DNA of 64,000 nt, from positions 1 to 64,000 of the IMG/VR virus record IMGVR_UViG_3300028400_000004. One strand, given 5' to 3'. This document shows positions 1 through 20,023 of the stretch, one piece after another. Under the pieces are notes generated by a model, which was not told the origin of the DNA, made no database searches, and was given only the letters and a program-made list of their open reading frames with translations. The position numbers and the translations under genes are program-made. Source of the DNA: a virus. Numbering within the stretch: position 1 is the first letter of the stretch; every line of letters starts with the position of its first letter.

Positions 1-188
1 CTGAAGTTTCTGCATTAGTCAAATGCCGAAAAATCCCATATTCTATATTTGTTGTAAGGGTAAATAGTAAAGGGGAATTGCGACTAGCAAAACCTTGTGA
101 ATCTTGTATGCTTGCCTTGGAACAGGTAAATATAAAAAATATTTATTATAGTGATAATAATGGTAATATACAACATATTGCGCTATAA
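1..188 (+). CDS. Zn-dependent cytidine/dCMP deaminase-like protein, 5'-truncated by window
   Basis: Frame 3 reads (A)EVSALVKC...LAKPCESCMLAL...IKNIYYS*, matching the HxE...PCxxC deaminase signature; absent from the ORF track. Confidence 0.8.
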   Translation, partial: EVSALVKCRKIPYSIFVVRVNSKGELRLAKPCESCMLALEQVNIKNIYYSDNNGNIQHIAL

Positions 189-238
189 GCGCCTGAGAGC
201 CTTTCTCAGCTTATTTTGTATAAAACTAATGGTTCGGT

Positions 239-808
239 ATGGGTACATTAAAGAAAACGTCTCAGAAACGATCACAGGCAGTCAAGATTGTCGGTATTGA
301 TCCTGCATTACGAAATACAGGCATAGTTTCCGCTGATTTAATAAATAATGATATAAAAATAAATTATGTTAAGCTGATTGAAACGACAACATTAAATGAA
401 AAACCAAAGGCCGTTGATGATTACAAACGTATAAATTTTATTTATAATAATTTAAGGCTGATTATAGATAATCATGATCTGATTATAGCGGAGTTCCCTA
501 TAGGTTCGCAATCAAGCCGCGCCATGGTTTCCTATGCTACTTCTATTAGTATATTAGCATGTTTTAATAAACCAATTATTCCTGTCACGCCGAATGATAT
601 AAAGAAATATATTGGCATAAAAAATGCAAGTAAGTCTGATTCAATAAATTATGTCAGGCAACATTATCCTAATTTTCCATTTATATTAAAAAACAATAAA
701 ATATTAAATAAGAACGAACATTTAGCGGATGCGATGATTGCCATACTTGCAGGCATAAAAAAAGCCGACGATGAGCCGGCTTTTATTAATTTTTTTCAAT
801 TATTATAA
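239..808 (+). CDS. ruvC: RuvC-like Holliday junction resolvase
   Basis: IVGIDPALRNTG, IIAE and EHLADAMIA acidic RNase H-fold motifs. Confidence 0.88.
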   Translation: MGTLKKTSQKRSQAVKIVGIDPALRNTGIVSADLINNDIKINYVKLIETTTLNEKPKAVDDYKRINFIYNNLRLIIDNHDLIIAEFPIGSQSSRAMVSYATSISILACFNKPIIPVTPNDIKKYIGIKNASKSDSINYVRQHYPNFPFILKNNKILNKNEHLADAMIAILAGIKKADDEPAFINFFQLL

Positions 809-1104
809 TTTTTCCAATATTTTTCCGCATTTTTCATTGCTAATATTATTCTATCACGTCCAATTGGATTTGCGGAATGTACTTGCCAGTTTATCTTGCT
901 TATTTCATTATTAAATGCCTTTTCTTCTATCCATCTCGCTATATCATATCCTGATTTTTCTTCCCCTAGATCATGGTCAAAAGAAATAAAAGTAACTTTG
1001 TATTTTCTTAATAATTTAATAGCATGGGCAAATGTTTTTGCCTCTAAGTCGAAGTCATCAGGTTTTGGTCTAACATCGTCTATCCATAGTTTCATATTTT
1101 TCAC
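796..1104 (-). CDS. cyclic-phosphate-processing receiver-like (cREC) domain protein
   Basis: LWIDDVR, ISFDHDLG, SGYDIARWI and VHSANPIG motifs typical of this phage family. Confidence 0.75.
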   Translation of the reverse strand: MKNMKLWIDDVRPKPDDFDLEAKTFAHAIKLLRKYKVTFISFDHDLGEEKSGYDIARWIEEKAFNNEISKINWQVHSANPIGRDRIILAMKNAEKYWKNYNN

Positions 1105-1419
1105 CTAGTGTAGTGTTTTGTTTTTATTTATTACGGCAATGTTATTATTCAAAATCAAAAAGTTTAGTGTTTTAGTCTGATTTTTCAATGCCTCAAAGTC
1201 TTCAGGCATTAAGGTTTTTTCTATTTCTGGCCCCGGCATAGGTATTTCTTTTAATGGTGTAATGCCGAAGTTATCTAGCAATGCTTTCGTGGCATCGTCC
1301 AATTGTATCCTAAGCTGGACGTACATATTGCGTTTATAGATTTTTTCAATATCCTTGTTTGATAGTTTTTCCATGTCATCAATTCCTAGCATAGCCTTTA
1401 GGGTTTTCAAAATATTCAT
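1105..1419 (-). CDS. hypothetical protein
   Basis: 104 aa ORF tightly packed in a leftward operon. Confidence 0.6.
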   Translation of the reverse strand: MNILKTLKAMLGIDDMEKLSNKDIEKIYKRNMYVQLRIQLDDATKALLDNFGITPLKEIPMPGPEIEKTLMPEDFEALKNQTKTLNFLILNNNIAVINKNKTLH

Positions 1420-1607
1420 CGCATGGACACCAAAATTAAGGCTAGTTTCAGCTTTAATTCACAATAAGAAATGTCTGTATGATTATCAAATTTTTTAATA
1501 ATATATTCTTTTTGTTGTATAGATAAATTTTCCCATTTAAGCATTTCATGATTAACCAAATTGTTCCATTGATTATTGATTGCCTTGATTAGGTTTTTGG
1601 TTTGCAT
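1416..1607 (-). CDS. hypothetical protein
   Basis: 63 aa ORF, GGAGA RBS, 4-nt overlap with the next gene. Confidence 0.6.
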   Translation of the reverse strand: MQTKNLIKAINNQWNNLVNHEMLKWENLSIQQKEYIIKKFDNHTDISYCELKLKLALILVSMR

Positions 1608-1627
1608 GTTTATTCTCCCATGGAAAA

Positions 1628-1661
1628 CAAGGTGCTAGTGCTATCATGCACTAGCACCTTG
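1628..1661 (-). terminator. intrinsic terminator-like hairpin
   Basis: 14-bp perfect inverted repeat CAAGGTGCTAGTGC/GCACTAGCACCTTG followed by a T-run on the minus strand. Confidence 0.65.
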
Positions 1662-1665
1662 CTAG

Positions 1666-1842
1666 TTAGATCATTCCCAAGTAAAGCAACCAAGACGGAT
1701 AACCGTGTTCACAGACGCCATCAGGTTCGACGATGCATCCGTCTGTTGCCTCACAAATGCCCTCATATACCCATTCCTTTAGAGTTTCAATGTTGGGCTC
1801 GTCTGTAGTTGGTTCAGGGTAAGTAAGATTCCGGTTTTCCAT
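1666..1842 (-). CDS. small phage protein (CEATDGCIVEPDGVCEHG motif, probably metal-binding)
   Basis: ATG at 1842 with GAGGA RBS; Cys/His motif. Confidence 0.7.
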   Translation of the reverse strand: MENRNLTYPEPTTDEPNIETLKEWVYEGICEATDGCIVEPDGVCEHGYPSWLLYLGMI

Positions 1843-1846
1843 TGTC

Positions 1847-2524
1847 TTAATCCTCTTTTGGTCCACGTATCGGCATGATAATAGCAAACGCTTTATTTGA
1901 CTCAAGATAATCCGTTTCTACTTTAATTTGTGCATCAGGTTCATTCCAATACATTTGGAACAAGGTTTCGCTATTCAAGGCATCGTCTAGATAAGCCTTG
2001 TTAATATAAATGAAGTTTTCATCATCAATTTTTATTTTATAAGCAAAATATTTGCCTACTTTTACAGTCTCAAAATCGCTAACATTAAAAACCTTAATGT
2101 TTTCGTAGGTTTTGTTAATGATTTGCAGAAAGCTGTTATTCCAATTAAATTGCAAGTTTTCACGGGTTACCCGATTGTATGCTTTATCATAGGTACCAGG
2201 ATCAATTGATGGAATCTTTTTTACATGCAGTCTATACCCGTCTGTGGCAAACATTAAATTATGAACGTCTGAAACCTGAATATAATTAGTCCACCCACGA
2301 ACGTCATAAGATTTAGGCAATGCTTTTTTGATCCAATCTTCGGCTGATTTTGCTTTTTTAGGAACGCTTGGCATGAAATATGTATAAAGTTTGGCTAGTT
2401 CATATTCTGATGGAACATGGCCGCTTTCGATCATATTTTCGACGATTGAAAAACATTCCTTTTTGGTCGGCTTTTTTGAGAGCAATTGATATGCAGCAAG
2501 ATTAATAATGTTTTGTTTGTCCAT
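1847..2524 (-). CDS. hypothetical protein with a beta-clamp-like segment
   Basis: FATDGYRLH resembles the clamp VATDGHRL motif; C-terminal AIIMPIR resembles the clamp terminus. Confidence 0.55.
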   Translation of the reverse strand: MDKQNIINLAAYQLLSKKPTKKECFSIVENMIESGHVPSEYELAKLYTYFMPSVPKKAKSAEDWIKKALPKSYDVRGWTNYIQVSDVHNLMFATDGYRLHVKKIPSIDPGTYDKAYNRVTRENLQFNWNNSFLQIINKTYENIKVFNVSDFETVKVGKYFAYKIKIDDENFIYINKAYLDDALNSETLFQMYWNEPDAQIKVETDYLESNKAFAIIMPIRGPKED

Positions 2525-2557
2525 GATTTTCCCCTTTTAGATTTAATTAATCTTGCT

Positions 2558-2585
2558 ATTAATGGGGGAACATTCCCCCATTAAT
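2558..2585. terminator. palindromic hairpin, possibly a bidirectional terminator
   Basis: ATTAATGGGGGAA-CA-TTCCCCCATTAAT perfect inverted repeat between genes. Confidence 0.55.
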
Positions 2586-2971
2586 TAGATAGAAATATCC
2601 CCATGGAAAAATTCGTTTTCCTGAAGATTTTTCAAAAAAGCATACAGGTGTTTCCGCGCAGTTTTTGCAGTTTTGTATGCTTGGTCGGAATCAGGGCGAT
2701 AAATAGTCCGGCCTTCCTTATCAAATACAACGCCCCGATAAATCCGTTCACCTTCCCAAGCGAACGGCAGGGATTCGACGATATAGAAAAAATCGCCGTA
2801 ATGTTCTGATTTTTGGTCGGCAGGAAAGATTCCTGCCTCAAGGATACGCGCATTAAAGAATTTTAGCGTATCGTCATCGACGTAATGGGTTCGGCCATTA
2901 AGCTGATCCTGCGCATAATCGACAGGACGGGAAAAATATTTTTCTTGATACTTTGTTCCTTTTCTAGCCAT
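2585..2971 (-). CDS. hypothetical early protein
   Basis: 128 aa ORF, GAGGA RBS. Confidence 0.7.
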   Translation of the reverse strand: MARKGTKYQEKYFSRPVDYAQDQLNGRTHYVDDDTLKFFNARILEAGIFPADQKSEHYGDFFYIVESLPFAWEGERIYRGVVFDKEGRTIYRPDSDQAYKTAKTARKHLYAFLKNLQENEFFHGDISI

Positions 2972-3076
2972 GGTTTTGATCCTCTTGGTTGGTTAATGAC
3001 TTTCCCTAATGGGCCATTATATGTTAGCAAGTTTCATGTTCGAATACAACATAAAAATTTTTATAAGGTTATAAAT

Positions 3077-3340
3077 TTATTTTCTATGTCGTCTTAAATA
3101 TCTGCGCCACGCTTTTCCATAGGGATATCGAACGCGGACTTGTACTTTCTTTTTAGTTTTTCTTGCAAGCTTTGCAGTTTCAATTAAATCTTTATGATAA
3201 TTCATTAGTTTTTCTTTAATTGTTTTGCCTTTATAATGTCGTAAATAGTGTTCCAACGCGGCATGATTATTTGGAGGGTTTTTAAGTAAATTTCTAACCC
3301 AAGCTGCATCTTGCAGTAGGATATGCATGGAACGGTTCAT
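3077..3340 (-). CDS. basic hypothetical protein
   Basis: 87 aa ORF, GGAGA RBS. Confidence 0.6.
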   Translation of the reverse strand: MNRSMHILLQDAAWVRNLLKNPPNNHAALEHYLRHYKGKTIKEKLMNYHKDLIETAKLARKTKKKVQVRVRYPYGKAWRRYLRRHRK

Positions 3341-3358
3341 TGCATTATTCTCCGTTAT

Positions 3359-3697
3359 TTATATTAAGTTTAGTTTGAATTGCCCGTGATTTTCCAGAAT
3401 GATTTTATGCACAATGGGCATAATTGTTTCATCATCCCATTCAATGGGTTTATCCTTGTTAGTCAATCCTAAATATTTCCATGCTTGGCGTAATAAATTT
3501 GCTTTTTCTAATATTTCATTATCTACTAATATTCTGGTACTGAATTGCGCCAGACAAGAATATTCAGGAATTCCGTTAAACATTGCAAACGTTACGATCC
3601 AGTCGCTATTGTAATATTCGGCGACGATGCTAGTATCTTCAGAATCAATAATTTCTAGCTGATTGCCTTGCGGCTTAATGTTCATGATTTTTCCCAT
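3359..3697 (-). CDS. hypothetical protein
   Basis: 112 aa ORF in operon. Confidence 0.6.
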   Translation of the reverse strand: MGKIMNIKPQGNQLEIIDSEDTSIVAEYYNSDWIVTFAMFNGIPEYSCLAQFSTRILVDNEILEKANLLRQAWKYLGLTNKDKPIEWDDETIMPIVHKIILENHGQFKLNLI

Positions 3698-3708
3698 AAC
3701 GACAGGTT

Positions 3709-4008
3709 CTAAGAAACGATCGGTTCAATCAAACCTTGATCAATTGCTTGCTTAACCGTTTCTTGAAACGCTTTTTCATAATTGAAGGATGCACCGTTTT
3801 CTACCAAAAAATCAAGCATTTCTTCGATATAATCGGTGCCTGATTGGCTAATAAATTCATCGCTATCAAGCAAAATCCATTGCGCGATGAAGTTTTCAAC
3901 GGTTTCAGTATAATATCCATTAGAATATATAAATGAACCGTTATCATTAAGGTTATTAATAGCAGTTACAACGTCATCGATTGTATTCATGTCGGCAAAG
4001 TATTCCAT
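3709..4008 (-). CDS. highly acidic small protein (DNA-mimic candidate)
   Basis: 99 aa with about 19 D/E versus 2 K/R; GAGGA RBS. Confidence 0.65.
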   Translation of the reverse strand: MEYFADMNTIDDVVTAINNLNDNGSFIYSNGYYTETVENFIAQWILLDSDEFISQSGTDYIEEMLDFLVENGASFNYEKAFQETVKQAIDQGLIEPIVS

Positions 4009-4025
4009 AATTATATTCCTCTATT

Positions 4026-4289
4026 TTAGTCTTCAAGATATGTTTTTGCGTCCTTTTGATCCTGAATCAGAAAAAAATCAGATGGGCCGAATATTTTTCC
4101 GTCATCGCGTACGACGCGTGCGGTTCCGATACGAACACGCGGCCCATTGGATGGAAAAAGATCGATCGGGTTATGATATTTTTTCCATATTCGCCATGCA
4201 CCGATTGGCGTGCTTGCATGGCCTTTTTCGGCCCAGAAAAGGCGACCATGCTTGTCTGCGTTAGCGACTTGGATAGTGTATTTTGCCAT
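4026..4289 (-). CDS. hypothetical protein
   Basis: ATG at 4289 (MAKYTIQV) with GAGGA RBS. Confidence 0.6.
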   Translation of the reverse strand: MAKYTIQVANADKHGRLFWAEKGHASTPIGAWRIWKKYHNPIDLFPSNGPRVRIGTARVVRDDGKIFGPSDFFLIQDQKDAKTYLED

Positions 4290-4308
4290 GGTTATTTTTT
4301 CCTCAGAT

Positions 4309-4536
4309 TTATCTAGTAAAACAAGGATCAGAATTAAAAGTGGCATCGCTCCATTTATTATTGTTTTTCAATGCCAGTTTAATTCCGGTTTCTGACAAAA
4401 TAATAATCTTCGTGTTTTTATTTTTCTGATTCACGCTAGCAATTCGTTTTGCATCATGCAACGAATTTGCCTCAATTTTATAAGCTGGTGGAAAGGTTCC
4501 AGGTTTTGATATTTCAATTATTTGATAAATAGCCAT
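4309..4536 (-). CDS. hypothetical protein
   Basis: 75 aa ORF, GAGGA RBS. Confidence 0.6.
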   Translation of the reverse strand: MAIYQIIEISKPGTFPPAYKIEANSLHDAKRIASVNQKNKNTKIIILSETGIKLALKNNNKWSDATFNSDPCFTR

Positions 4537-4560
4537 GATTTTATTCCTCTTTTTAATAAC

Positions 4561-4596
4561 TAAAACCCATGGGGGAATTTTCCCCCATGGGTTTTA
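4561..4596. terminator. bidirectional terminator-like hairpin
   Basis: 16-bp perfect inverted repeat TAAAACCCATGGGGGA/TCCCCCATGGGTTTTA. Confidence 0.65.
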
Positions 4597-4977
4597 TTCG
4601 GTATCGCGTTCAATTTTGATTCCCGTTTCCTGTTCAAGGGAATCATAAAATTCTTTATCATAGGCCAGTTTGTGAGCGTACCATTCGACGGCCGTCCACA
4701 ATAATTCCCCTAAAGAGCGCGCGGGATATGCTTCCCCCGTAGTGTCTTCATATTCCGCCAAAAAATCGTCGATGGCGGACAGGTGGCGGGGAAGATAAAT
4801 AGAAAAGTCCATATGATGAATAAGGTTATAATCGAGCGGGAGACTGCAATTCGGCCCGTTGGCCGAATCCAGATAATAGGCGATAGCGGACTGCTTTGGT
4901 CTTTCACCGAAATAATTTTCTTCGAGTAGTTCGACAATATGCTCAAAAATATCATTAATGATAGTGTTTTTCTGCAT
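4594..4977 (-). CDS. acidic early protein (anti-restriction/DNA-mimic candidate)
   Basis: 127 aa, about 25 D/E versus 9 K/R; first gene after the leftward promoter. Confidence 0.6.
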   Translation of the reverse strand: MQKNTIINDIFEHIVELLEENYFGERPKQSAIAYYLDSANGPNCSLPLDYNLIHHMDFSIYLPRHLSAIDDFLAEYEDTTGEAYPARSLGELLWTAVEWYAHKLAYDKEFYDSLEQETGIKIERDTE

Positions 4978-5013
4978 TATCTTAATCCCCTTTTTGGTTT
5001 GCCTGTGGTCCTA

Positions 5014-5043
5014 ATAGTAGGACCGCCTTTTGAATCATGTCAA
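5014..5043 (-). promoter_or_regulatory. sigma70-type leftward early promoter
   Basis: TTGACA-N18-TACTAT on the minus strand upstream of 4977. Confidence 0.6.
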
Positions 5044-5472
5044 GCCTTTTTGTCATGCTCGACACGATTATATCTAAGCATCGACAAGCCTAGACAATGC
5101 TATAGCCAAATACAAGTAAAAAGATTTTATGATGACGATTAAATTTATTTATGATCTGATTATTAAATAATCTGGCATGATTATTGTATAACATGCCTGG
5201 TTGGCATGATTGTATGACATGCCTAACTGGCATGATTAATGCATTATATATTAGAATTTGATAACATAATGTTACCCTGATTCGCCTGATTGTTATATAA
5301 TTATTTTATTATATAATTATTTTATTATATAAGAATTTTATTAATTACTAATTGGCATGCTTGTTGCAATTCATTACATATAAGGAGAAACCGGCTTTGG
5401 GCTTATTTGGTATGCTTTTTGTAAGCAAACTATTCAATAATTTTGTTTATACCCTTATAAAAAATTTTAGCA

Positions 5473-5511
5473 TTTACAAAGACCATGTTTGTGATATTCT
5501 AGGCTTGCCAA
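5473..5511 (+). promoter_or_regulatory. cassette 1 promoter (extended -10)
   Basis: TTTACA-N16-TATTCT with TG; the TGnTATyCTAnrCTkGCCAA motif is shared with cassettes 2-4. Confidence 0.6.
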
Positions 5512-5544
5512 ACGTGGCAATAACCAGAACCAGGAGACAATATC

Positions 5545-5916
5545 ATGGAAAATTTAATTTTTTATAAGATTGACCAAATTCCTGAGGTTTTCGCCCCCGA
5601 AGCGGCTTATCTTGATGCCTCGGGATATGCCTTCGTCGGGGTCCTGAAGGGCTCTGATGGCATCATCAAGGCGGCAATATGGTTAGGCCGCCCGCCTACG
5701 CAATCAACCCACATCTTAACTGGCCCCGAGCCGGTTCGGTTCCCTACACGAGAGGGTGTACTTATCCCCATCTCGACGGGGGATACCGGCTGGAATCAAA
5801 TTCCCGCCTTAGTACTACCTGCCCGGTACGGGGCGACTATCGCCCCAGAATATAAGGTAGCCGCTCCGTATCAGGCTGCGCTCATCGAGGCATTTGAGCT
5901 TGGGGAGTTAGCTTAG
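5545..5916 (+). CDS. cassette 1 hypothetical protein
   Basis: 123 aa, AGGAG RBS, own promoter and terminator, GC above flanks. Confidence 0.75.
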   Translation: MENLIFYKIDQIPEVFAPEAAYLDASGYAFVGVLKGSDGIIKAAIWLGRPPTQSTHILTGPEPVRFPTREGVLIPISTGDTGWNQIPALVLPARYGATIAPEYKVAAPYQAALIEAFELGELA

Positions 5917-5922
5917 TGCAGT

Positions 5923-5961
5923 AAACAACCCCTCGACGCTATTTTGTCGAGGGGTTGTTTT
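5923..5961 (+). terminator. intrinsic terminator
   Basis: AAACAACCCCTCGAC/GTCGAGGGGTTGTTT stem with T tail. Confidence 0.8.
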
Positions 5962-6170
5962 ATGTCAGTATATTAGAGTTTAATAATATAATGTTAGTCT
6001 GATTTGCCTGATTGTTATATAATAATTTTATTATATAATAATTTTATTAATTACTAATTGGCATGTTTGTTGCAATTCATTATATATAAGGCTGATTGTC
6101 TTTAACATTAATTGGCATAATTATTGCATTATAAATTAGTCTTATTTATGGCATTATAAAAAATTTAATG

Positions 6171-6210
6171 TTTGTGTTGGTGGATTTTGTGATATTCTAC
6201 ACTTGCCAAT
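6171..6210 (+). promoter_or_regulatory. cassette 2 promoter (extended -10)
   Basis: TGATATTCTACACTTGCCAAT, same motif as cassettes 1, 3 and 4. Confidence 0.55.
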
Positions 6211-6241
6211 TCTGGAAATAGATAATTTGGGGGATAAGACA

Positions 6242-6460
6242 ATGGAAAATTCGCAAGTTAATGCTGCTATTCTTTCTGCGGAAGAAGCGGGGCGCGCCGT
6301 TGTTCGCTTCGGCGCCAATTTCTCGACAATCAAAGAAATATCCGAGTATTTCTACCATGAACTTGCTTATGGATATTGGGATGACATTATCCCAACAATA
6401 TCCGTAGAGCAAGCGCGTGATGCCTTTATCCAAGGCGTGATCGCCGAACAAAACAAATAA
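6242..6460 (+). CDS. cassette 2 small hypothetical protein
   Basis: ATG at 6242 after GGGGGA RBS; 72 aa; followed by a terminator. Confidence 0.7.
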   Translation: MENSQVNAAILSAEEAGRAVVRFGANFSTIKEISEYFYHELAYGYWDDIIPTISVEQARDAFIQGVIAEQNK

Positions 6461-6465
6461 CATAC

Positions 6466-6495
6466 ATTCCCCCACAGATTTTGTGGGGGAATTTT
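6466..6495 (+). terminator. intrinsic terminator
   Basis: ATTCCCCCACA/TGTGGGGGAAT stem with T tail. Confidence 0.75.
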
Positions 6496-7107
6496 AATGC
6501 ATTATATATTAGAATTTAATAATATAATATTAATCTGATTCGCTTGATTACATGCTATGTCATACATGGCATGATTAATGCATGATACATTGATTTAATT
6601 AAATAATTATATAAGTATATTTTTATTTAATCATGGTCTGATTTATGCCTGATTGTTATATAGTTATATAGTAATATAATGCTGATCTGATTCATCTGAT
6701 TGAATATAATTATTTTATTATACGTTGATTAGCTAATACGCCTGATTAAATATTAGAATATAATAATGTAATTGATTCCTGATTCGCCTGATTGGCTATT
6801 AGCATTTAATTATATACTGATTAACTGATTAACTAACACGCCTGATTGGCTATTAGCGTTTTATTATATTTTAATAAAATAATATTATTAAATAATTATA
6901 TTAGAATATAAGAATAAACTTAAGTAACAATATTAGAATATAAAAGAATTTAGGCTCGAGTACATTCTAAAATAAGAATATGATAAAATTCTAATATAGT
7001 TTATTAATTAAATAGGCCAATTTTAGAGTTTGGCATGGGTTTTGCAATTCTTTATATAAGGGATTGCATAAGGATAAGATTAAGTTATGTGGCTATAGAA
7101 TTTTTTA

Positions 7108-7173
7108 GTGTTGCGTTGGTGGGCGAGTATGTTATCCTAGACTGGCCAATGTAGGATCACACTAAGAGGAGGA
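7108..7173 (+). repeat. 66-bp promoter/leader/RBS unit, copy 1
   Basis: Identical to 8068-8133; contains TTGCGT-N16-TATCCT with extended TG and AGGAGGA RBS. Confidence 0.9.
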
Positions 7174-7177
7174 GGTC

Positions 7178-7675
7178 ATGATCTATCCCGCTACTGATCG
7201 TCACTTTGTGATCTTCGGCGGGTACTCGCCCGCCGTCATCTACGTCACCCCCGCGTGGGGTGACGACCTGGACCGCTTTTTTGCGCTCCAGTTCATCCCC
7301 GCTTGGGCGGTCCCCGCCCAGGTGGACCGCTACGGGAAGGTCCAGGCGGCCTTCCCTGACCCGGAGGGCCTACGACTGGCCTTCCGGTCGGCCCCTTACG
7401 GCCGGGGGCCGGAACGGGTCTCGGTCTTTTCGCCAGAGGGGGATCATCCCCTCTGGCGGGTTTTCGAATTGGACGGGGTCAATCCCCGTCCAATTCGCCA
7501 ATGGGTGGTCCGGGGACCCCGGACCACCCCCATGGCCCACCCCGAACCTCAGTCGGGGTGGGTCCCACCCACCGAATGGGGGCGCTCGACCCCCTATTGG
7601 GTCAGCCCGTCAGGGCTGACTTTCCCCCAAGACGTGCCCGACCACCGGCGGCCACATTGGTGGCCGCCGGTTTGA
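7178..7675 (+). CDS. cassette 3 GC-rich, Pro/Trp-rich hypothetical protein
   Basis: 165 aa, strong RBS, promoter and terminator; GC far above the genome average. Confidence 0.7.
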   Translation: MIYPATDRHFVIFGGYSPAVIYVTPAWGDDLDRFFALQFIPAWAVPAQVDRYGKVQAAFPDPEGLRLAFRSAPYGRGPERVSVFSPEGDHPLWRVFELDGVNPRPIRQWVVRGPRTTPMAHPEPQSGWVPPTEWGRSTPYWVSPSGLTFPQDVPDHRRPHWWPPV

Positions 7676-7680
7676 CCCGC

Positions 7681-7716
7681 ACCCCGCCCCACCAGATTGG
7701 TGGGGCTGGGTTTTCT
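7681..7716 (+). terminator. intrinsic terminator
   Basis: GCCCCACCA/TGGTGGGGC stem with T tail. Confidence 0.75.
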
Positions 7717-7947
7717 ATTGGCCAGAATATTAGAATATGATAATATAATTGCAAATTTATGTATATTTTTAATTATATTATTATATTCTGATTAGTGCCT
7801 GATTGGCATGACTGATGCATAACATGCCTGATTGGCCTGATTGCGAAGCAACATGGCCATGATTGGCCTATATCTTGCATGGCCTGCTGGCTAGAATGGG
7901 TCTTAGAATCAGTCTAATAATCATTACTGCTATGCAGTAATGTTAAC

Positions 7948-7966
7948 AATAATCATTATCATTATC
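7948..7966. promoter_or_regulatory. Fur box
   Basis: Minus strand GATAATGATAATGATTATT, 17/19 match to GATAATGATAATCATTATC. Confidence 0.65.
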
Positions 7967-8067
7967 ATTGGCACGCATTGTGCATACATGCACGAATTGT
8001 GCCATGCTGAGGATGGCATGGTGTTTGCTAAAAATAATATGAGTTTATGGCAGGATAAGAAATTTAT

Positions 8068-8133
8068 GTGTTGCGTTGGTGGGCGAGTATGTTATCCTAG
8101 ACTGGCCAATGTAGGATCACACTAAGAGGAGGA
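8068..8133 (+). repeat. 66-bp promoter/leader/RBS unit, copy 2
   Basis: Identical to 7108-7173, offset 960 bp. Confidence 0.9.
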
Positions 8134-8139
8134 TTCGTT

Positions 8140-8532
8140 ATGACCCGCCCCACTACCAAAATTCGTACCACCACCATCTCCACCAAGCTTGTCGTGCAGG
8201 AAATATTCCTGCACGACACAGGGGAGCGTCACGTCAAGGGCCGTTGGGCCCAGGTCGGCACATGGAAGTGCCGGCATATCTACGTCCGCCACGACGTGTG
8301 GCGGACCCTCCAAGGCCGCCCAAACCCCCCAACCCTCGTCCTTGAGGTCTTGGACCTCAGGGACGAAATCCTCAGGGCGTCCCTCTCAGGGGACGTGGGC
8401 CCCCTGACAGTCACCCGCAGGTCCGAGCGACGGCACATCGGTGGGCCGTCCTCCATGGCCACCGCCCAGGTCCAATGGTGGGACCTGGGCGGGGTCGTCG
8501 GGATCGGAGGGATACCGCCGTCCGATCCCTAA
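8140..8532 (+). CDS. cassette 4 GC-rich hypothetical protein
   Basis: 130 aa, GAGGAGG RBS, promoter and terminator. Confidence 0.7.
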   Translation: MTRPTTKIRTTTISTKLVVQEIFLHDTGERHVKGRWAQVGTWKCRHIYVRHDVWRTLQGRPNPPTLVLEVLDLRDEILRASLSGDVGPLTVTRRSERRHIGGPSSMATAQVQWWDLGGVVGIGGIPPSDP

Positions 8533-8537
8533 CCAGC

Positions 8538-8573
8538 ACCCCACCATGCCGAGCAGGCATGGTGGGGTTTCTT
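8538..8573 (+). terminator. intrinsic terminator
   Basis: ACCCCACCATGCC/GGCATGGTGGGGT stem with T tail. Confidence 0.8.
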
Positions 8574-9156
8574 ATTGCCCACACTATCACCATATCCTTA
8601 TATTATTATATACTAATACCTAACCAATTCTTAGACTCATTCTAATTCTCACCTAAAATTCCCCCATATTTTACCCTATTTTTGTATTTTATAACTCCAT
8701 AAAATCCAGTAATAATGCGGCTTCCAGCATTATTATTTGCTTATTTTTTAATATTTTTCTATATACGCGCTTAACGCGCAATAATAATAAATCACCAAAA
8801 ACCCAACTTTCCTATATACGAAAAAACTCGGCTGTTGGATTTTTAACTTATCTTTTTGGATGGCCAAGAATCGCATAAAAATGCGCCTTTCAGCGCGCAT
8901 AACTTTCCATTTTTGCGCTTTATTGCGCATCAATGCGCGTATGCACTAAAAACACAAAAAAGCATAATGGCACAGAACGTGCAATATGCATGAATCGTAC
9001 CAGCATAATATGCCGATATGCTAATATAGCGCCTCAGATAACGCCTGAGCGCCAAAGGCGCGCAACATGGCATACCCTATGCATACATGCATGAAATGCG
9101 CCAGAATCGCACCACAGGCGCGTGTAGGACCATATAATAATATAATGGTATGCTAA

Positions 9157-9172
9157 TGTTTCACGTGGAACA
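9157..9172. promoter_or_regulatory. parS: parS site (chromosomal ParB-binding consensus)
   Basis: TGTTTCACGTGGAACA, matching the 16-bp bacterial parS consensus TGTTNCACGTGAAACA on the reverse strand. Confidence 0.8.
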
Positions 9173-9194
9173 AGAGAAGGGGAGAGAATGGTGT

Positions 9195-9228
9195 CTAGTG
9201 TGGCCAGGTGGCTAGTGTGGCCAGGTGG
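9195..9228 (+). repeat. 17-bp perfect tandem duplication
   Basis: CTAGTGTGGCCAGGTGG x2, just before a G10 run at 9248-9257. Confidence 0.85.
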
Positions 9229-9566
9229 CGAGCGCCTACACGTCCCAGGGGGGGGGGCAATCGGCGCGTGTGGGGTGGCGCGGAAATTGCAATATAAGGA
9301 CAAATATTCTGGCCTCATTTTTTCATTTGAAAATATATTAAGTATTAATATTCTAATCTAATATGGCCAAAATATCATGACATCATTTTTTCATTTGGAA
9401 TTATAAAGAATTTCTTGGTCTTGTTTTTTCATTTGGGATTTACTGGCTTACTATAGGCTGGTTTTTAATTAAGCCAATGTATTCCATCCTTATTATTTTG
9501 TAATAGTTTGTTACTTATCTAATCTAAAATAAGATATTATTATACCTTTTATTTGAGTTAATATAC

Positions 9567-10084: not shown

Positions 10085-10567
10085 TTAGCTGATTAATGGC
10101 TTTCCATACATTATAGTGTGTAGGGTGTTTATTTTTTGTTTGAAGGATTCAGCCGCAAATATATAATAAGATGAGGTCGGAGGCATTTTGGTTAAATAGA
10201 TATATAATAGTAATGAAGATAATGGATAATAACGAAAAGTCTTATCTTGTTTAAGATTAAGCAATGATATGCTTATTATATAAAGAAATGCAAATCTGTT
10301 TGGTTTTGTAAATATCTCAAATGTATCTATAGAATAATTATATAATTCTGTGTATATAAAACACAAAGAAGGCACTATATGTAATCTGCCGTCACTTACA
10401 TAATAAGAAATGTTTTTATCATAAGATAGTGTCCTCAATTTTTTGATGAATAATGTGGTTAAGGGCCTTGGAAAATTGTCTGTTAATTCTTGGTAGTTAT
10501 TTATGTCATTATATAATTCGTATAACTCATGTAGTTCTGATTTGGTAGGTGTATAGTCAATAAACAT
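10085..10567 (-). CDS. paralog-family member 2 (unknown function)
   Basis: MFID...LYELYNDINNY...ISISLLNLK...KQKINTLHTI. Confidence 0.75.
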   Translation of the reverse strand: MFIDYTPTKSELHELYELYNDINNYQELTDNFPRPLTTLFIKKLRTLSYDKNISYYVSDGRLHIVPSLCFIYTELYNYSIDTFEIFTKPNRFAFLYIISISLLNLKQDKTFRYYPLSSLLLYIYLTKMPPTSSYYIFAAESFKQKINTLHTIMYGKPLIS

Positions 10568-11075
10568 TTAATGTCTCATTAAATAATAAATTTAGCTGAC
10601 GGATTTTGTTTTTAAATGCATTAAATATTATACTAGTACAAGTAGATTGCCTTATACTATAATTTATGTTGTTTGCTTTATATGTTCTTTCTAATAAAGC
10701 GTACTCATTAAATATGATAACATCGTTTGCTATTTTACTTTGGGTATGGGTATATTCAAACAAACAAGTTGTAAGCATGTATAAAAATTGGAATTTTAAA
10801 TCTTTTTCATGTGAAAGCCTTTCCCAATTTATAATTGTATAAGCATTTAATTCTTTTATGTATATAAAATTTCTATGATAAAGATTGAAAACTATAATGT
10901 CATCCCTTAAATATAAAGGATCGCCATGCATTGTAGTATTTAATTGTTTTAGCTTGTTTGATAGAATTTTGATGAGTTTTTCATTATAAGTGTCCATAAG
11001 ATAATAGTATTTAAATATATCATTATAAATACTATAAATTTTAGGTATGTCGTCCTTATTGAAATCCACGAACAT
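10557..11075 (-). CDS. paralog-family member 3
   Basis: MFVD...IYSIYNDIFKYYYL...LTTCLF...KNKIRQL. Confidence 0.75.
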   Translation of the reverse strand: MFVDFNKDDIPKIYSIYNDIFKYYYLMDTYNEKLIKILSNKLKQLNTTMHGDPLYLRDDIIVFNLYHRNFIYIKELNAYTIINWERLSHEKDLKFQFLYMLTTCLFEYTHTQSKIANDVIIFNEYALLERTYKANNINYSIRQSTCTSIIFNAFKNKIRQLNLLFNETLNVY

Positions 11076-11076
11076 T

Positions 11077-11307
11077 TTATTTGTTGAACGACAATGTAAC
11101 GCAAATTACACCACAATTTGTGGCAACCGTATGAATCCTAGAGACGCCGAATACGACGAAATCTCGTTTTTCCCTAGAATTTTCAGTGCAATAACAACTA
11201 TTTACCATGTCATAATAAAAAAGTTTGTTGCCGTAACCAACAAAATCACAAAAAGGATCGCGATCATTACAGGCAAATTCTGTATAAATCTGTAATGGAA
11301 ATAACAT
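11077..11307 (-). CDS. hypothetical protein
   Basis: 76 aa, AGGA RBS, fills the operon gap. Confidence 0.5.
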   Translation of the reverse strand: MLFPLQIYTEFACNDRDPFCDFVGYGNKLFYYDMVNSCYCTENSREKRDFVVFGVSRIHTVATNCGVICVTLSFNK

Positions 11308-11325
11308 AACTTCCTTTTTGAAACC

Positions 11326-11559
11326 TTAAATTCCTATAAACCACGCATCATCATGAGCACCTATCCCGAATAGAAACTTATGTATTATAACTTCCTTTAC
11401 GTTAAATTGTTTGTTCAATTCTAAAAGAAAAGTATCAGAAAAATCTAAAACACTGATGGCAGGATTATCTTGAAATGGCTTTTTGTGTGTCCGTAATTGT
11501 ATTTCTGTGTCTGACAAGTAATCAACTAGGGCTTGGTAAATATCTTTATAGTTTTCCAT
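11326..11559 (-). CDS. hypothetical protein
   Basis: 77 aa, AGGAG RBS. Confidence 0.65.
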   Translation of the reverse strand: MENYKDIYQALVDYLSDTEIQLRTHKKPFQDNPAISVLDFSDTFLLELNKQFNVKEVIIHKFLFGIGAHDDAWFIGI

Positions 11560-11588
11560 ATATTGGCTCCTAAAGAAGTAATAAGAAA

Positions 11589-12131
11589 TTATTTACTGTA
11601 CATGATTGATTTTAATTCGGTTATTTTTCTTTTTATATTTTTATACATGAAATCGTAATAAACATCAGCCGGCATAGTTAAATAATGATCAAAAACAATT
11701 TTATATAACCTATAAGAATCTACTGGATAAAATTCTTTTTTTGGATACTCTGAATCTTTTTTTATATCAAGTAAGCACATTGATAATATAAAGAAGAAAT
11801 AATTATCAAGTTCACTTTTATTTATACTTGTAAATAAATAATGGCCATCTATTCTTATACCAGTATCGTAGTATTCTACATGTTTTGAAAGGAAAGTTGG
11901 CGCAAAATAGACACTATCATTCGATATTATTAGTATATCACGATGCAAATTTGCATTTAATGTGGTAATATCTGTTAATAGTGTATCCACCAACACTCTA
12001 TTTTGTCCGTTAAGTAGGGTTTGGTAATTATATAAATCTATAAATTTGTTATATAACTCAATAATTTGTTTTTTCGTCGGTAATGTGTCTATAAAAATGT
12101 CTTTAGGGGTCATTGGTTTAATCCTAAACAA
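11589..12131 (-). CDS. paralog-family member 4
   Basis: FIDTLPTK...LYNKFIDLYNY...YFAPT...LSMCLLDIK...KRKITELKSI. Confidence 0.75.
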   Translation of the reverse strand: MFRIKPMTPKDIFIDTLPTKKQIIELYNKFIDLYNYQTLLNGQNRVLVDTLLTDITTLNANLHRDILIISNDSVYFAPTFLSKHVEYYDTGIRIDGHYLFTSINKSELDNYFFFILSMCLLDIKKDSEYPKKEFYPVDSYRLYKIVFDHYLTMPADVYYDFMYKNIKRKITELKSIMYSK

Positions 12132-12808
12132 TCAATCACTGAACGCAAGTGTGATAAGTGCCGTTGCCGCCACAATTGGAACTTGTCCGTTTCCAATGCA
12201 GCGAAATCTATCCATCCTATGGGCCATCCCATTAACCATTCTTCCGTTTCTGGGATTCTCCGCCCAAACACTTTGGTATGATTTTTGCAACTTTTCCATT
12301 TCTGCATAGATGGTGCATTGTAATTTGCTTTTGTCGTCGGCGTATGCAAGTAACCAATATCTTCTCCGAACGTGGTCACTACCCAAGTCTTTCGCGGAAA
12401 GGGAAATACCTTGGACTTTGTAACCCAGCCCAGCCAAATCCCTTCCTGCATGTTCAATCGCGTTCTTGCTGACATTTTCAGCAAAGACATACCATGGGGC
12501 GACTTCTCGTACGATTCGGAGCATTTCTGGCCACAAGTCTTCTGCAACTTTTCTGCCTCTACTTGCACTAGAAAATGCCTGGCACGGATAACCGCCCGAA
12601 ATGATATCCACAAGTCCTTCCCAACGTCTTCCATCAAATTCTTTGACATTTTCAAAGATTGGGAAAGGTGGCAAATGGCCTTCGTTTTGCCGCATAAGCA
12701 CAATGTTCCTGGCGTATTCGTTGATTTCAACACCGCATACTGGATGGATACCGACCAATGTGGAGGCCAAAATGCCTCCACCGCAGCCTGTGAAAAGTGA
12801 TAGTTCAT
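12110..12808 (-). CDS. overlapping alternative-frame C5-MTase beta polypeptide (M.EcoHK31I-type); true start probably internal (about 12634-12649)
   Basis: Open frame across the whole MTase encodes motif IX-like RIPETEEWLMGWPIGW, which is missing from alpha. Confidence 0.65.
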   Translation of the reverse strand: MNYHFSQAAVEAFWPPHWSVSIQYAVLKSTNTPGTLCLCGKTKAICHLSQSLKMSKNLMEDVGKDLWISFRAVIRARHFLVQVEAEKLQKTCGQKCSESYEKSPHGMSLLKMSARTRLNMQEGIWLGWVTKSKVFPFPRKTWVVTTFGEDIGYLHTPTTKANYNAPSMQKWKSCKNHTKVFGRRIPETEEWLMGWPIGWIDFAALETDKFQLWRQRHLSHLRSVIDCLGLNQ

Positions 12809-12812
12809 TCAT
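12132..12812 (-). CDS. DNA (cytosine-5) methyltransferase, alpha polypeptide lacking motif IX
   Basis: Motifs I (LFTGCGG), IV (GGYPCQ), VI (ENV), VIII (HVRRR) and X (GNGQVP); only 226 aa. Confidence 0.88.
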   Translation of the reverse strand: MNELSLFTGCGGGILASTLVGIHPVCGVEINEYARNIVLMRQNEGHLPPFPIFENVKEFDGRRWEGLVDIISGGYPCQAFSSASRGRKVAEDLWPEMLRIVREVAPWYVFAENVSKNAIEHAGRDLAGLGYKVQGISLSAKDLGSDHVRRRYWLLAYADDKSKLQCTIYAEMEKLQKSYQSVWAENPRNGRMVNGMAHRMDRFRCIGNGQVPIVAATALITLAFSD

Positions 12813-12827
12813 TTGCTCTCCTTTATC

Positions 12828-13616
12828 TTATATAAATAATTTTTTCATCGCAGCTTGTTGCTGTCTTTTAGTCAAATCATCGATAGAGACTAAGCTTGAA
12901 CCATTATTATATAGAATATAACGCAAGGAAGGTTTTACATACTTTATATCATATTCCCCATATAAAAACTTACAATTATCAACTACATAATGGTCTAGGT
13001 TTACTTTAGATTTTTTTATTAAAGTATTTAATTGCCTTTTGTAAAAATCATTAAAAAATGAGGGGCTATAATGCGAAGATAATAATTCTTCATTATCCAA
13101 AATACTTAAATAATAAGTACTAGTATAAACCTTTCTATATATATTTTTATCAGCCAAACTTAAGAATAAAAATGTATATAAGTCATATTTATTTATTTTA
13201 TTATCAAAAAACGAATAAGAAAAAGCTGTTGTATTTACCAGACAAACAAAAAATGCTTTTCTCATTTTTTGCTTTTTTAACAAGTCTTTATATCTATTTT
13301 TATTATAAAACAGTGCATACAAAAGTAATATATACTTATTATACTCAGAATACATTTTAACTTTATTAGAAATTATAAGCCTCAAATACATCTCCAAATC
13401 AAAAGTATTCAAAAATTCAACAAATATTTCATAATATTCTTGTTTATTGTATCCATCCCTGTATAAAATGCAAAAAGGCTCATTTTTAATTGTTTTTTTA
13501 AACTCAAAAATGTCTAGTTTGTTCGTATTTAAACAAAAATGCATCTTCGCGATTTCTTTACGAACGTTTCTATCATTCACACAAAATAAAAAATTTGATA
13601 GTCTGAAAGTACACAT
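12828..13616 (-). CDS. hypothetical protein
   Basis: 262 aa AT-rich ORF in operon. Confidence 0.6.
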   Translation of the reverse strand: MCTFRLSNFLFCVNDRNVRKEIAKMHFCLNTNKLDIFEFKKTIKNEPFCILYRDGYNKQEYYEIFVEFLNTFDLEMYLRLIISNKVKMYSEYNKYILLLYALFYNKNRYKDLLKKQKMRKAFFVCLVNTTAFSYSFFDNKINKYDLYTFLFLSLADKNIYRKVYTSTYYLSILDNEELLSSHYSPSFFNDFYKRQLNTLIKKSKVNLDHYVVDNCKFLYGEYDIKYVKPSLRYILYNNGSSLVSIDDLTKRQQQAAMKKLFI

Positions 13617-13641
13617 AAAAGCTCCTTAAAATATTGTCACA

Positions 13642-14139
13642 TCAACTAACAACAATCGAATGTAATTGCTCTATTTTATATTTTATCAACTCAGCAAACC
13701 CCGTATAGTAACTGTTTTTATCATTCATAAATATAATTAGATAAATAAGATTAAAAGAAGTGGGGCGGGCAACTTGAACACCTTTCTCTGATTTTATATC
13801 CAATAAACAAATGGAAGTCAATAGAAGAAAAGTGTTGATATAAGGCTGGCTAAAACGTTCATTATAATAATATAAATTTGTATAAAGTATGCTTGAATAC
13901 TTATTACCATTATATACAATAAGATTAAGCCCAATGGTAGGGCTAAAATATAATATGTTGTTCTGGATTATTAAAACGTTTTTTGGTAATTTATTATTTA
14001 TGCTTCTTAAAGAAGCAATTAAATCATCTACTAAGCCTTTGTTATACACCCCTACAAGTAAATAATATTCATAAATATTAACAAATAGCTGGTATGCAAA
14101 GTCTAAGTGTTCTTTGTCTGGCAACTTATCCATAAACAT
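13642..14139 (-). CDS. paralog-family member 5
   Basis: MFMDKLPDK...AYQLFVNIYEYYLL...YFSPT...TSICLLDIK...KYKIEQLHSI. Confidence 0.75.
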   Translation of the reverse strand: MFMDKLPDKEHLDFAYQLFVNIYEYYLLVGVYNKGLVDDLIASLRSINNKLPKNVLIIQNNILYFSPTIGLNLIVYNGNKYSSILYTNLYYYNERFSQPYINTFLLLTSICLLDIKSEKGVQVARPTSFNLIYLIIFMNDKNSYYTGFAELIKYKIEQLHSIVVS

Positions 14140-14660
14140 TATAAAAGTTCATTATAAATTTTATATATTTTAGGTTTTACTATATTAACTATTTTATGGT
14201 ATAATGTGTTGCTACAACTAGTAACTTTAGTTAAATGATCTATCAAAAAACTAATACTTATAATTTTATAATCAACATTTTTATTTCTAATAACCATACA
14301 AGACGAAAAATAAAGTAATATTGCGAACTCAAGTTTTATATCTTTACAGCGAAATCCTTGACAAAAATAATCAGAAAACGCTATATAAATATTATCCTCT
14401 TTTAGATTTACATAAGCATTACCATCAAAAGTTATATTGAAAAAGAGATTATTATTGGATTCATATAATACAAAAGGAGAAATTATAGAATCATTCATTT
14501 CCATTAGTATTTTATTAAACTTTAATAATAGTTCTGATGAATAAACTTCAAGTATTTCCCGATATTTATGAATATCAACATACAGCTTGCATAATTCCTC
14601 TATATAATAGTTATTTACATCAATATTCGAACTCATAATAAAATCTCTATAAAAAATCAA
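14139..14660 (-). CDS. paralog-family member 6
   Basis: LCKLYVDIHKYREIL...FFNIT...FSSCMVI...KPKIYKI. Confidence 0.7.
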   Translation of the reverse strand: MIFYRDFIMSSNIDVNNYYIEELCKLYVDIHKYREILEVYSSELLLKFNKILMEMNDSIISPFVLYESNNNLFFNITFDGNAYVNLKEDNIYIAFSDYFCQGFRCKDIKLEFAILLYFSSCMVIRNKNVDYKIISISFLIDHLTKVTSCSNTLYHKIVNIVKPKIYKIYNELL

Positions 14661-14661
14661 A

Positions 14662-15228
14662 TCAAAAATACTTTGTTATATTGAACAAACATTTATACAT
14701 ATGAGTAAATTCCCTCAATATTTCTTTAGGAATATATCTATCATATTGTTTATTAAAAACGATTGACTTATATATAAGATTAAAAAATAACTCTCCTTCT
14801 CCAAATATAATATCTCTTTTAAGTGTTTTTCTTTCTTTATAATACTTACATAAAGATATGACCAAAATAAACGGAAATTCATATACAATGTCTCTTATTT
14901 TTCCTTGTTCATATACAATAGTACTATATCCATAAACTTTATAATATGTAGCATCGTACCTAAAAAGACTATAAAGAATTTTAGTGGAAAGACTTAAACA
15001 ATTAATCCCATTTGTCTCATAAGTAACACATTCCATACCAAACACATTATTGTAATAATTAAAACTGTCCAACAACTTATTATCTACATCATTCGTTAAA
15101 ATATAATAATTATACAACGCTAGATAAGCATTATACATTTCCTTTATAAAGGAAATGTCTTCAACAAGTTCTATCTTTTTCTTATCAATCCAATCATTTT
15201 CTGCCAGTCGATCCAAATCCATTTTCAT
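14662..15228 (-). CDS. paralog-family member 7 (divergent)
   Basis: MYNAYLALYNYYIL...NKLL...FILVISLC. Confidence 0.65.
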   Translation of the reverse strand: MKMDLDRLAENDWIDKKKIELVEDISFIKEMYNAYLALYNYYILTNDVDNKLLDSFNYYNNVFGMECVTYETNGINCLSLSTKILYSLFRYDATYYKVYGYSTIVYEQGKIRDIVYEFPFILVISLCKYYKERKTLKRDIIFGEGELFFNLIYKSIVFNKQYDRYIPKEILREFTHMYKCLFNITKYF

Positions 15229-15670: not shown

Positions 15671-15680
15671 TTTTACCTCT

Positions 15681-20011: not shown

Positions 20012-20023
20012 GGTAGAAAATAA

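Follow-up and report, generated by a model that had tools for sequence, protein, structure and literature searches.

Clustered and face-to-face sigma-54-type boxes in a cassette region of an uncultured phage

Sigma-54 is regarded as the means by which a host keeps its stress, nitrogen and flagellar genes under tight gating. The first 64,000 nucleotides of the viral record IMGVR_UViG_3300028400_000004 in IMG/VR (hereafter the window) carry a dense array of boxes that resemble its promoter signal, extending from position 5228 to 9291 and including pairs of boxes that face each other. Why should a phage concentrate such sites in one short region, and what reads them? Here we describe the motif, its enrichment, its conservation in a relative and the spread of the paired design among viruses, and we weigh the uses to which the boxes could be put. 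They are very likely real sigma-54 sites, as far as can be judged from the DNA sequence; our preferred reading of their function, held tentatively, is that they are chiefly promoters that depend on an enhancer, firing in one or both directions within a cassette region that is early or accessory.

An enriched and conserved array of boxes

The sigma-54 promoter consensus is given as TGGCAC-N5-7-TTGCT (PMC12316311), and in the boxes of the array the GG of the -24 element and the GC of the -12 element lie exactly ten bases apart, as this promoter class requires. A strict form of the motif, TGGCAYRNNNNDTGCW (TGGCAYR-N4-DTGCW), is matched 13 times in the window against 0.20 +/- 0.40 expected from dinucleotide-preserving shuffles, and 12 of the 13 matches fall between 5228 and 9083; the remaining 20 kb of the record contain zero further strict matches, and a control with the reversed pattern also gave 0. 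The looser pattern TGGC-N8-TGC is found 22 times against 4.2 expected, with 15 occurrences inside the 4.1-kb region (binomial p = 1.5e-13). A scan scored against the consensus resolves 16 boxes, 13 forward and three reverse (Table 1), six of which match 11 of the 12 scored positions. Two boxes are weak, 7864 (TGGCCT) and 8987 (TGGTAC). A lone strict box at 613-628 (TGGCATAAAAAATGCA) sits within a RuvC-like ORF (239-808), far from the array, and may be a chance match.

Three kinds of box can be told apart in the region: those belonging to gene cassettes, those embedded in repeat units (5173-5243, 6567 and 7804) and those forming head-to-head pairs. Boxes 5228, 6113 and 6567 share the spacer ATTA together with their flanks and are therefore repeat copies of one unit. 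All 13 forward boxes are co-oriented with the cassettes, and every reverse box is a partner in a head-to-head pair. The boxes at 5353, 6059/6113, 7031 and 8014, which fit the consensus best, lie 126-192 bp 5' of the start codons of the four cassettes.

Conservation could be followed in one relative. For the protein encoded by the third cassette (ORF3), 5.8 billion proteins contain only two homologues. The contig carrying one of these, L025, came out of a metagenome scan; it is 3,007 bp long and colinear with window positions 6750-9295, and all conservation figures rest on this single relative. Consensus positions of the boxes are identical in 106 of 110 cases, or 98 of 99 when the degenerate 8987 box is set aside, compared with 1161 of 1389 other non-coding positions (84%, plus 95 gaps; Fisher p = 9e-5 for all boxes and 2e-6 without 8987). 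Spacer positions are identical at 45 of 50, leaving five spacer substitutions. That most substitutions within boxes fall in the spacers while the consensus positions are kept points to purifying selection on the boxes. The sole remaining consensus change outside 8987 is in box 9276, where L025 reads TGGCACG and is nearer to the consensus. Box 8014 stands out in L025 as a conserved island, changed at one spacer base and set between flanks that have diverged. Pair 1 has two altered spacer bases and no other difference and pair 3 keeps every consensus position, whereas pair 2 has conserved its forward box and lost its reverse box (TTGTCT).

Much of this had been anticipated by the first-pass annotation of the DNA, which described a dense array of about 16 boxes, quoted those at 5353, 6059, 7031 and 9276 and equated the motif with the RpoN consensus. 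The count is the one that we obtain and the four quoted boxes are all in place; the exact spacing, the clustering of the strict matches and their conservation in L025 agree with RpoN. Its two proposed comparisons, with shuffled controls and with related phages in which boxes would be kept as spacers diverge, both come out in its favour. The extent that it gave, from 5173 onwards, needs trimming: boxes begin at 5228, and the two units before it, at 5173 and 5203, do not have the -12 GC and cannot be counted as boxes.

Head-to-head pairs in this phage and in other viruses

The three pairs face each other with their -12 ends 4 bp apart in pair 1 (7969-7984/7989-8004), 3 bp in pair 2 (8968-8983/8987-9002) and 4 bp in pair 3 (9068-9083/9088-9103), exactly as first reported. 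The spacers of the two halves match at no more than one of five positions in any of them. We searched for this design with the pattern TGGCAY-N6-TGCA-N3/4-TGCA-N6-RYGCCA, whose 17 fixed and three two-fold positions should, by our own arithmetic, give one chance match per ~1.4e11 positions for each gap length. IMG/VR contains at least 119 matching stretches, and the earlier suspicion that such pairs are unlike ordinary promoters is upheld to the extent that they form a special, virus-enriched architecture. The viral loci that were fetched hold 134 pair sites, 120 of them with different sequences, on contigs ranging from 33 to 65% GC.

Positions that the pattern left free are informative about its origin. 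Among the viral matches listed, T precedes TGGCA in 56%, a purine follows TGGCAY in 96% and T precedes TGCA in 73%; these preferences match the extended sigma-54 consensus. When the gap was varied from 0 to 30 bp in viral contigs, a sharp peak appeared at 2-5 bp, holding about three quarters of the stretches against 13% for a flat distribution. Identity between half-site spacers is 0.18-0.31 in the viral pairs, no more than chance. We also considered that the pairs might be hairpins or cruciforms; this is ruled out, since the half-site spacers are not complementary, and the pairs are therefore two protein sites. Extra boxes occur within 400 bp in 97 of the 134 viral loci, at 5.6 per kb against 0.19 per kb farther off.

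In bacterial and archaeal species genomes (596 Gb) the four gap lengths together gave 72 stretches against ~17 expected by our own arithmetic, at least one of the 72 being a viral contig binned into a metagenome-assembled genome (locus L246 equals L191); in bacteria the pair design stands at about chance level. Taken together, the design is a recurrent use of the sigma-54 signal that is enriched in viruses, and the pairs of the window belong to this class. With ORF calls that are crude, 29 of 57 viral pairs fall between divergent ORFs (150 aa or longer), compared with 85 of 473 for all neighbouring ORF pairs of these loci (p = 2e-8); convergent ORFs flank four of 57 pairs against 53 of 473 in the background, which is no enrichment.

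Many marine-looking viral contigs of IMG/VR (loci L034, L043, L045, L054, L058, L185 and others) repeat their pairs with a period of 46-50 bp, leaving ~10 bp between the -24 ends of neighbours and producing strictly alternating arrays. The 9-bp back-to-back spacing between pair 1 and box 8014 is like that of these repeated pairs. A BLAST search with the pair array of another phage found no match among cultured phages.

The distribution of the pairs bears on whether sigma-54 is the reader at all. The motif could merely resemble the sigma-54 signal and be bound by a phage protein or a different host factor, for example a regulator that recognises GGCAY and TGCA one helical turn apart and also uses the GGCATG...CATGCC and CCTGATTG repeats. 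Several boxes do lie within a wider repeat vocabulary (TGGCATGATT units, inverted repeats and 21 copies of CTGATT), 10 of the 16 carry ATGCA, GTGCA or TTGCT instead of TTGCA, and the phage encodes a sigma-70-family factor of its own. Against this, the pair geometry recurs in more than 100 unrelated viral contigs of 33-65% GC with the extended consensus at unfixed positions, which points to a universal host reader. A sigma-70-family factor, moreover, needs ~17 bp between its elements and not 10-11 bp centre to centre, and Pfam and PHROGs name no DNA-binding protein among the ten genes scanned to the left (1-5000) and the ten scanned to the right (10085-16954) of the region, Pfam having covered three of those on the right. 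We regard a reader other than sigma-54 as improbable.

The cassette region and the possible uses of its boxes

The array occupies a plus-strand island between two minus-strand gene blocks. Four self-contained promoter-ORF-terminator cassettes are followed by 1.25 kb that hold no credible gene. The order within a cassette is an AT-rich CTGATT block, a forward box, an extended -10 promoter of the type TGnTAnnCT, the ORF preceded by a Shine-Dalgarno sequence and, last, a terminator hairpin rich in GC; the sigma-70-type promoters that the first-pass annotation assigned to the nearby genes are thus present. A further sigma-70-like promoter, TTGTTA-16-TATAAT, stands upstream at three places in the region. 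In three cassettes the predicted sigma-54 start, 12 nt past the GC, falls within a conserved ATATAAGG block.

Table 1. Features of the array region (window coordinates)
Feature	Position	Strand	Details
Sixteen boxes of the consensus-score scan	5228, 5353, 6059, 6113, 6567, 7031, 7804, 7864, 7969, 7989, 8014, 8968, 8987, 9068, 9088, 9276	7989, 8987 and 9088 on -; others on +	
Three tandem TGGCATGATT units	5173-5243	+	GGCATG-N9/12-CATGCC inverted repeats formed by two of them; third unit a full box (5228-5243, TGGCATGATTAATGCA)
CTGATT-N3-CTGATT direct repeat	5277-5317	+	Overlaps TTGTTA-16-TATAAT (5290-5317); then 16-bp AT-rich tandem repeats
Box for cassette 1, TGGCATGcttgTTGCA	5353-5368	+	Predicted start ~5379 in ATATAAGG; 192 bp 5' of ORF1
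Cassette 1	5473-5962	+	Promoter TTTACA-16-TATTCT with TG (5473-5500); terminator hairpin ~5927-5962, read from sequence
ORF1	5545-5916	+	123 aa, 54% GC
Cassette 2 upstream module	5999-6128	+	CTGATT x2 (5999, 6008); TTGTTA-16-TATAAT (6012-6039)
Cassette 2 boxes, TGGCATGtttgTTGCA and TGGCATAattaTTGCA	6059-6074, 6113-6128	+	
Cassette 2	6190-6492	+	TGaTATTCT (6190-6198); ORF2 6242-6460 (72 aa); hairpin 6466-6492
AT-rich block	6535-6847	+	26% GC; 11 same-strand CTGATT; box 6567-6582
Box for cassette 3, TGGCATGggttTTGCA	7031-7046	+	Identical in L025, flanks differ
Cassette 3	7069-7706	+	Leader with TGtTATCCT (7129-7137); terminator 7686-7706
ORF3	7178-7675	+	165 aa, 67% GC
CTGATT x4 and two boxes	7788-7879	+	Box 7804-7819, in a 50-bp stretch missing from L025; weak box 7864-7879
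Head-to-head pair 1, TGGCACgcattGTGCA-TACA-TGCACgaattGTGCCA	7969-8004	both	Predicted starts ~7995 (rightward) and ~7978 (leftward)
Box for cassette 4, TGGCATGgtgtTTGCT	8014-8029	+	9 bp past pair 1
Cassette 4	8029-8568	+	Shared leader; ORF4 8140-8532 (130 aa, 65% GC); terminator 8538-8568
Head-to-head pair 2, forward box TGGCACAGAACGTGCA	8968-9002	both	Reverse box degenerate (TGGTAC)
Head-to-head pair 3, TGGCATaccctATGCA-TACA-TGCATgaaatGCGCCA	9068-9103	both	
17-bp tandem repeat x2, G10 run, box TGGCGCGgaaaTTGCA	9190-9291	+	Box at 9276-9291
ORF-less segment behind the 9276 box	9292-9472	+	Three TTTTTTCATTTGRRA repeats (from 9302); terminator-like hairpin 9442-9462

A 105-bp promoter and leader, 84% identical, is common to cassettes 3 (7069-7173) and 4 (8029-8133), whose cargo ORFs are unrelated to each other and, at 65-67% GC, stand in a phage of 33% GC. 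L025 keeps the promoter, leader start and terminator of cassette 4 and has replaced ORF4 by unrelated cargo, a 55-aa AT-rich ORF and a 129-aa GC-rich ORF (the L025 stretches compared are 700-806 and 1560-1680); the regulatory frame is therefore conserved and its cargo exchangeable. None of the four cassette ORFs belongs to a Pfam or PHROG family, and an AlphaFold model of ORF3 built from three sequences was unusable (pLDDT 36). The ORF-less segment of 170 nt that follows box 9276 may correspond to a short RNA, or possibly to a set of protein-binding repeats; the predicted fold of 9296-9472 is no better than that of shuffles (z = -0.5). Small minus-strand ORFs behind the reverse boxes (8930-9073 and 8748-8933) show no apparent protein-level conservation in L025. 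The gene-free stretch around pairs 2 and 3 (8750-9130), 87-89% identical in L025, is rich in TGCGC/GCGCA words and short palindromes (ACGCGCTTAACGCGCA, GCGCTTTATTGCGCATCAATGCGC).

The record as a whole is 83,753 bp long, linear and ~79% complete, its ends being assembly breaks, and the stretch was found in only one public run, from a hydrothermal-vent metagenome. It encodes a portal, a protease/scaffold, a major head protein and a tape measure, alongside NrdA/B, a DnaB-type helicase, a second helicase, a clamp-loader-like AAA+ protein and a MoxR-like AAA+ protein. The phage is of siphovirus type with replication genes of its own and, as no integrase was found in it, is probably virulent. Its sigma-70-family factor (50075-50794, 239 aa, regions 2 and 4) implies a middle or late programme apart from the array region. 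No sigma-54 gene or HTH_8 domain was found in the phage, and no Rfam family or tRNA in the window. Close kin are scarce: megablast of 5000-9500 against cultured phages gave no match, IMG/VR scans seeded with the portal and both flanking genes found no close relative contig, and the portal reaches at most 31% identity to that of any cultured phage. The composition of the genome is a mosaic, with GC-rich islands at 20001-21000 (49% GC, in the major head protein gene) and 35001-36000 (57% GC, in a 2,283-aa tail gene).

A further reading is that the boxes double as, or simply are, sigma-70 promoters whose number has been inflated by duplication of one promoter module. In boxes 5353, 6059 and 7031 exactly 17 bp separate the sequence TTGGCA, a possible -35 element, from a TACATA or TATATA (TAYATA) downstream of it, and the upstream modules of cassettes 1 and 2 are 94% identical over 80 bp. 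On this reading TTGCA would be mere spacer, and yet it is conserved while the four bases in front of it vary (cttg, tttg, ggtt); the pairs and more than ten boxes that have no such -10 element would be left uncovered; and, beyond the copies with the ATTA spacer, spacers and flanks differ from box to box. We consider this very improbable.

If, as we prefer, the boxes are enhancer-dependent promoters, host sigma-54 (RpoN) polymerase would read the sites that selection appears to have kept, and each cassette would be under two controls, a near sigma-70-type promoter and a sigma-54 box ~100-170 nt further upstream that would fire only while a host AAA+ activator (bacterial enhancer-binding protein, bEBP) is active. 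The co-oriented CTGATT repeats, and the GC-rich tandem repeats that precede box 9276, are candidate sites for such an activator; activation from solution would also be possible. The face-to-face pairs would act as interdigitated two-way promoters. According to our own derivation a gap of g bp places the -12 cytosines 3+g apart and the starts 21-g apart, so that the two predicted starts of a pair would lie 17-18 bp apart and face outwards, and each would fall near -17 of the partner promoter. The melted regions would overlap in the centre, and therefore only one polymerase per pair could be active at a time. The preference of viral pairs for divergent gaps fits two-way promoters.

CTGATT occurs 21 times between 5156 and 7842 against 33 times in the other 79 kb, all but one of the copies in the region being on the plus strand, often as CTGATT-N3-CTGATT with a 9-bp period that L025 keeps with variable N3. 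The repeat CCTGATTG has eight copies in the region against one in the other 79 kb. CTGATT repeats may function as enhancer sites or as targets of a phage regulator. Between CTGATT and the box lies a 16-bp AT-rich unit, ATATAATTATTTTATT, present three times in cassette 1 (5293-5352) and twice in cassette 2 (6015-6058), so that the distance from CTGATT to the box shifts by 16 bp between the two. Ahead of box 9276, by 20-85 bp, a 17-bp repeat (GGTGkCTAGTGTGGCCA, 9190-9260) has two copies here and three to four in L025 (2860-2960), followed by a run of ten G. No match to the integration host factor (IHF) consensus was found in the region, and the module pattern TTGGCATG-N4-TTGCAATTC returned 13 single, unrelated matches from IMG/VR, about the chance level.

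A number of observations weigh against the promoter reading. No activator is seen in the phage: PF00158 finds only the MoxR-like AAA+ protein and the clamp loader, and the GAFTGA motif is absent both from the record and from 1.65 Mb around 193 other viral loci. The promoter reading presumes an rpoN gene in the host. No credible gene flanks pairs 2 and 3 or box 9276, leftward firing from pair 1 would be antisense to ORF3, and every cassette already has a sigma-70-type promoter. The 16-bp shift puts the CTGATT repeats of cassettes 1 and 2 half a helical turn out of phase relative to their boxes, which is awkward for an enhancer that must sit on one face of the helix. Boxes 6567 and 7804 lie in stretches that are absent from L025 and are dispensable there; together with the destroyed reverse box of pair 2 this means that some sites are unneeded. 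Firing from the boxes is a prediction of this reading.

Several of these points would suit a non-productive role, in which sigma-54 polymerase docks in stable closed complexes and activation follows seldom if ever. The array could be a sponge that drains the small host sigma-54 pool and silences responses of the Psp, Rtc or flagellar type, or a set of orientation-independent roadblocks or insulators, placed between cassettes and at the region's edge. Neither the phage nor the surroundings of the 193 other viral loci were found to encode an activator, and PMC4591121 describes sigma-54 as occupying many sites without transcribing. Palindromic pairs would bind polymerase either way round; pairs 2 and 3 lie in the 1.25-kb gene-free stretch facing convergent genes; and the genes have sigma-70 promoters of their own. 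Boxes 5353 and 6059, moreover, stand ~13-45 bp past the predicted starts of the strong sigma-70-like promoters at 5290 and 6012, where they would be suited to act as roadblocks. The missing activator, the gene-less pairs, the sigma-70 promoters and these roadblock-like positions make docking a serious rival, though on balance an unlikely one. A sponge would need neither strict co-orientation nor one regularly spaced box per cassette, viral pairs prefer divergent and not convergent gaps, and L025 tolerates the loss of two boxes. The broader proposition that phages use host sigma-54 polymerase as a DNA-bound device (roadblock, insulator or sponge) and not as a transcribing enzyme seems to us rather doubtful; in the sponge variant it would switch off sigma-54-dependent stress or defence responses of the host.

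The same evidence bears on what the first-pass annotation proposed about function. Its view of the array as a landing pad rather than a set of promoters does not sit well with unpaired boxes that are co-oriented and placed one per cassette 126-192 bp upstream, nor with the divergent gaps favoured by viral pairs; because no activator gene was found, sequestration or a roadblock stays a live rival. Its placing of the array at the entering end of the genome, and the ideas built on that end, find no support here: the array is situated 5-9 kb into a record that is linear and incomplete and that ends in assembly breaks. Elsewhere, in 37 whole viral contigs, 12 of the pairs come within 500 bp of an end where 4.8 were expected (p = 0.002), but breaks induced by repeats during assembly explain this equally well and we have set the genome-end idea aside.

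Comparison with known systems

Many uncultured phages appear to carry a dedicated sigma-54 architecture that bacteria hardly use. Should the sites fire, part of the phage programme would be coupled to a host activator, that is, to a stress or infection signal of the host, and the pairs would be the most compact two-way promoters known to us; should they not fire, they would represent a new kind of decoy or roadblock. A full-text search found no published description of clustered or face-to-face sigma-54 sites in phages; as the library is incomplete, this amounts to no more than an absence of evidence.

With its conserved frame and exchangeable GC-rich cargo, the cassette region is a clear case of a phage exchanging genes as modules. 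It recalls the promoter-early stem-loop (PeSL) cassettes of T4-type phages, in which small early genes sit between a conserved promoter and terminator and are swapped among relatives, just as ORF4 is exchanged for unrelated cargo in L025. PeSLs have only sigma-70 early promoters, and we know of no sigma-54 component in them.

The closest phage precedent is YuA, a Pseudomonas phage that needs the sigma-54 of its host in order to develop (Ceyssens et al. 2008, cited in PMC5053324) and for which a sigma-54-like start site, P015, has been mapped (bioRxiv 10.1101/2023.10.13.562163). The use of sigma-54 by phages is called rare in PMC5053324, with YuA as the example. Our phage would share with YuA the use of host sigma-54 polymerase in addition to sigma-70; it is unrelated in sequence and host, and YuA is reported to have single promoter regions, with no account of arrays or pairs found for it. 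Silent and intragenic sigma-54 binding sites are distributed genome-wide in E. coli and Salmonella (PMC4591121, PMC3844500). Like pairs 2 and 3 may do, these hold polymerase inactive with no obvious target gene; as described there they are scattered singly, and are not clustered, paired or virus-specific.

With bacterial sigma-54 promoters such as glnAp2 and pspA the array shares the GG and GC ten bases apart, the extended consensus, upstream repeats and, past five boxes, a correctly oriented gene. A bacterial example of face-to-face sigma-54 pairs was not found in the literature search. The phage differs from these promoters in having 16 sites in 4 kb, no activator gene, a tandem arrangement with sigma-70-type promoters and interdigitated pairs.

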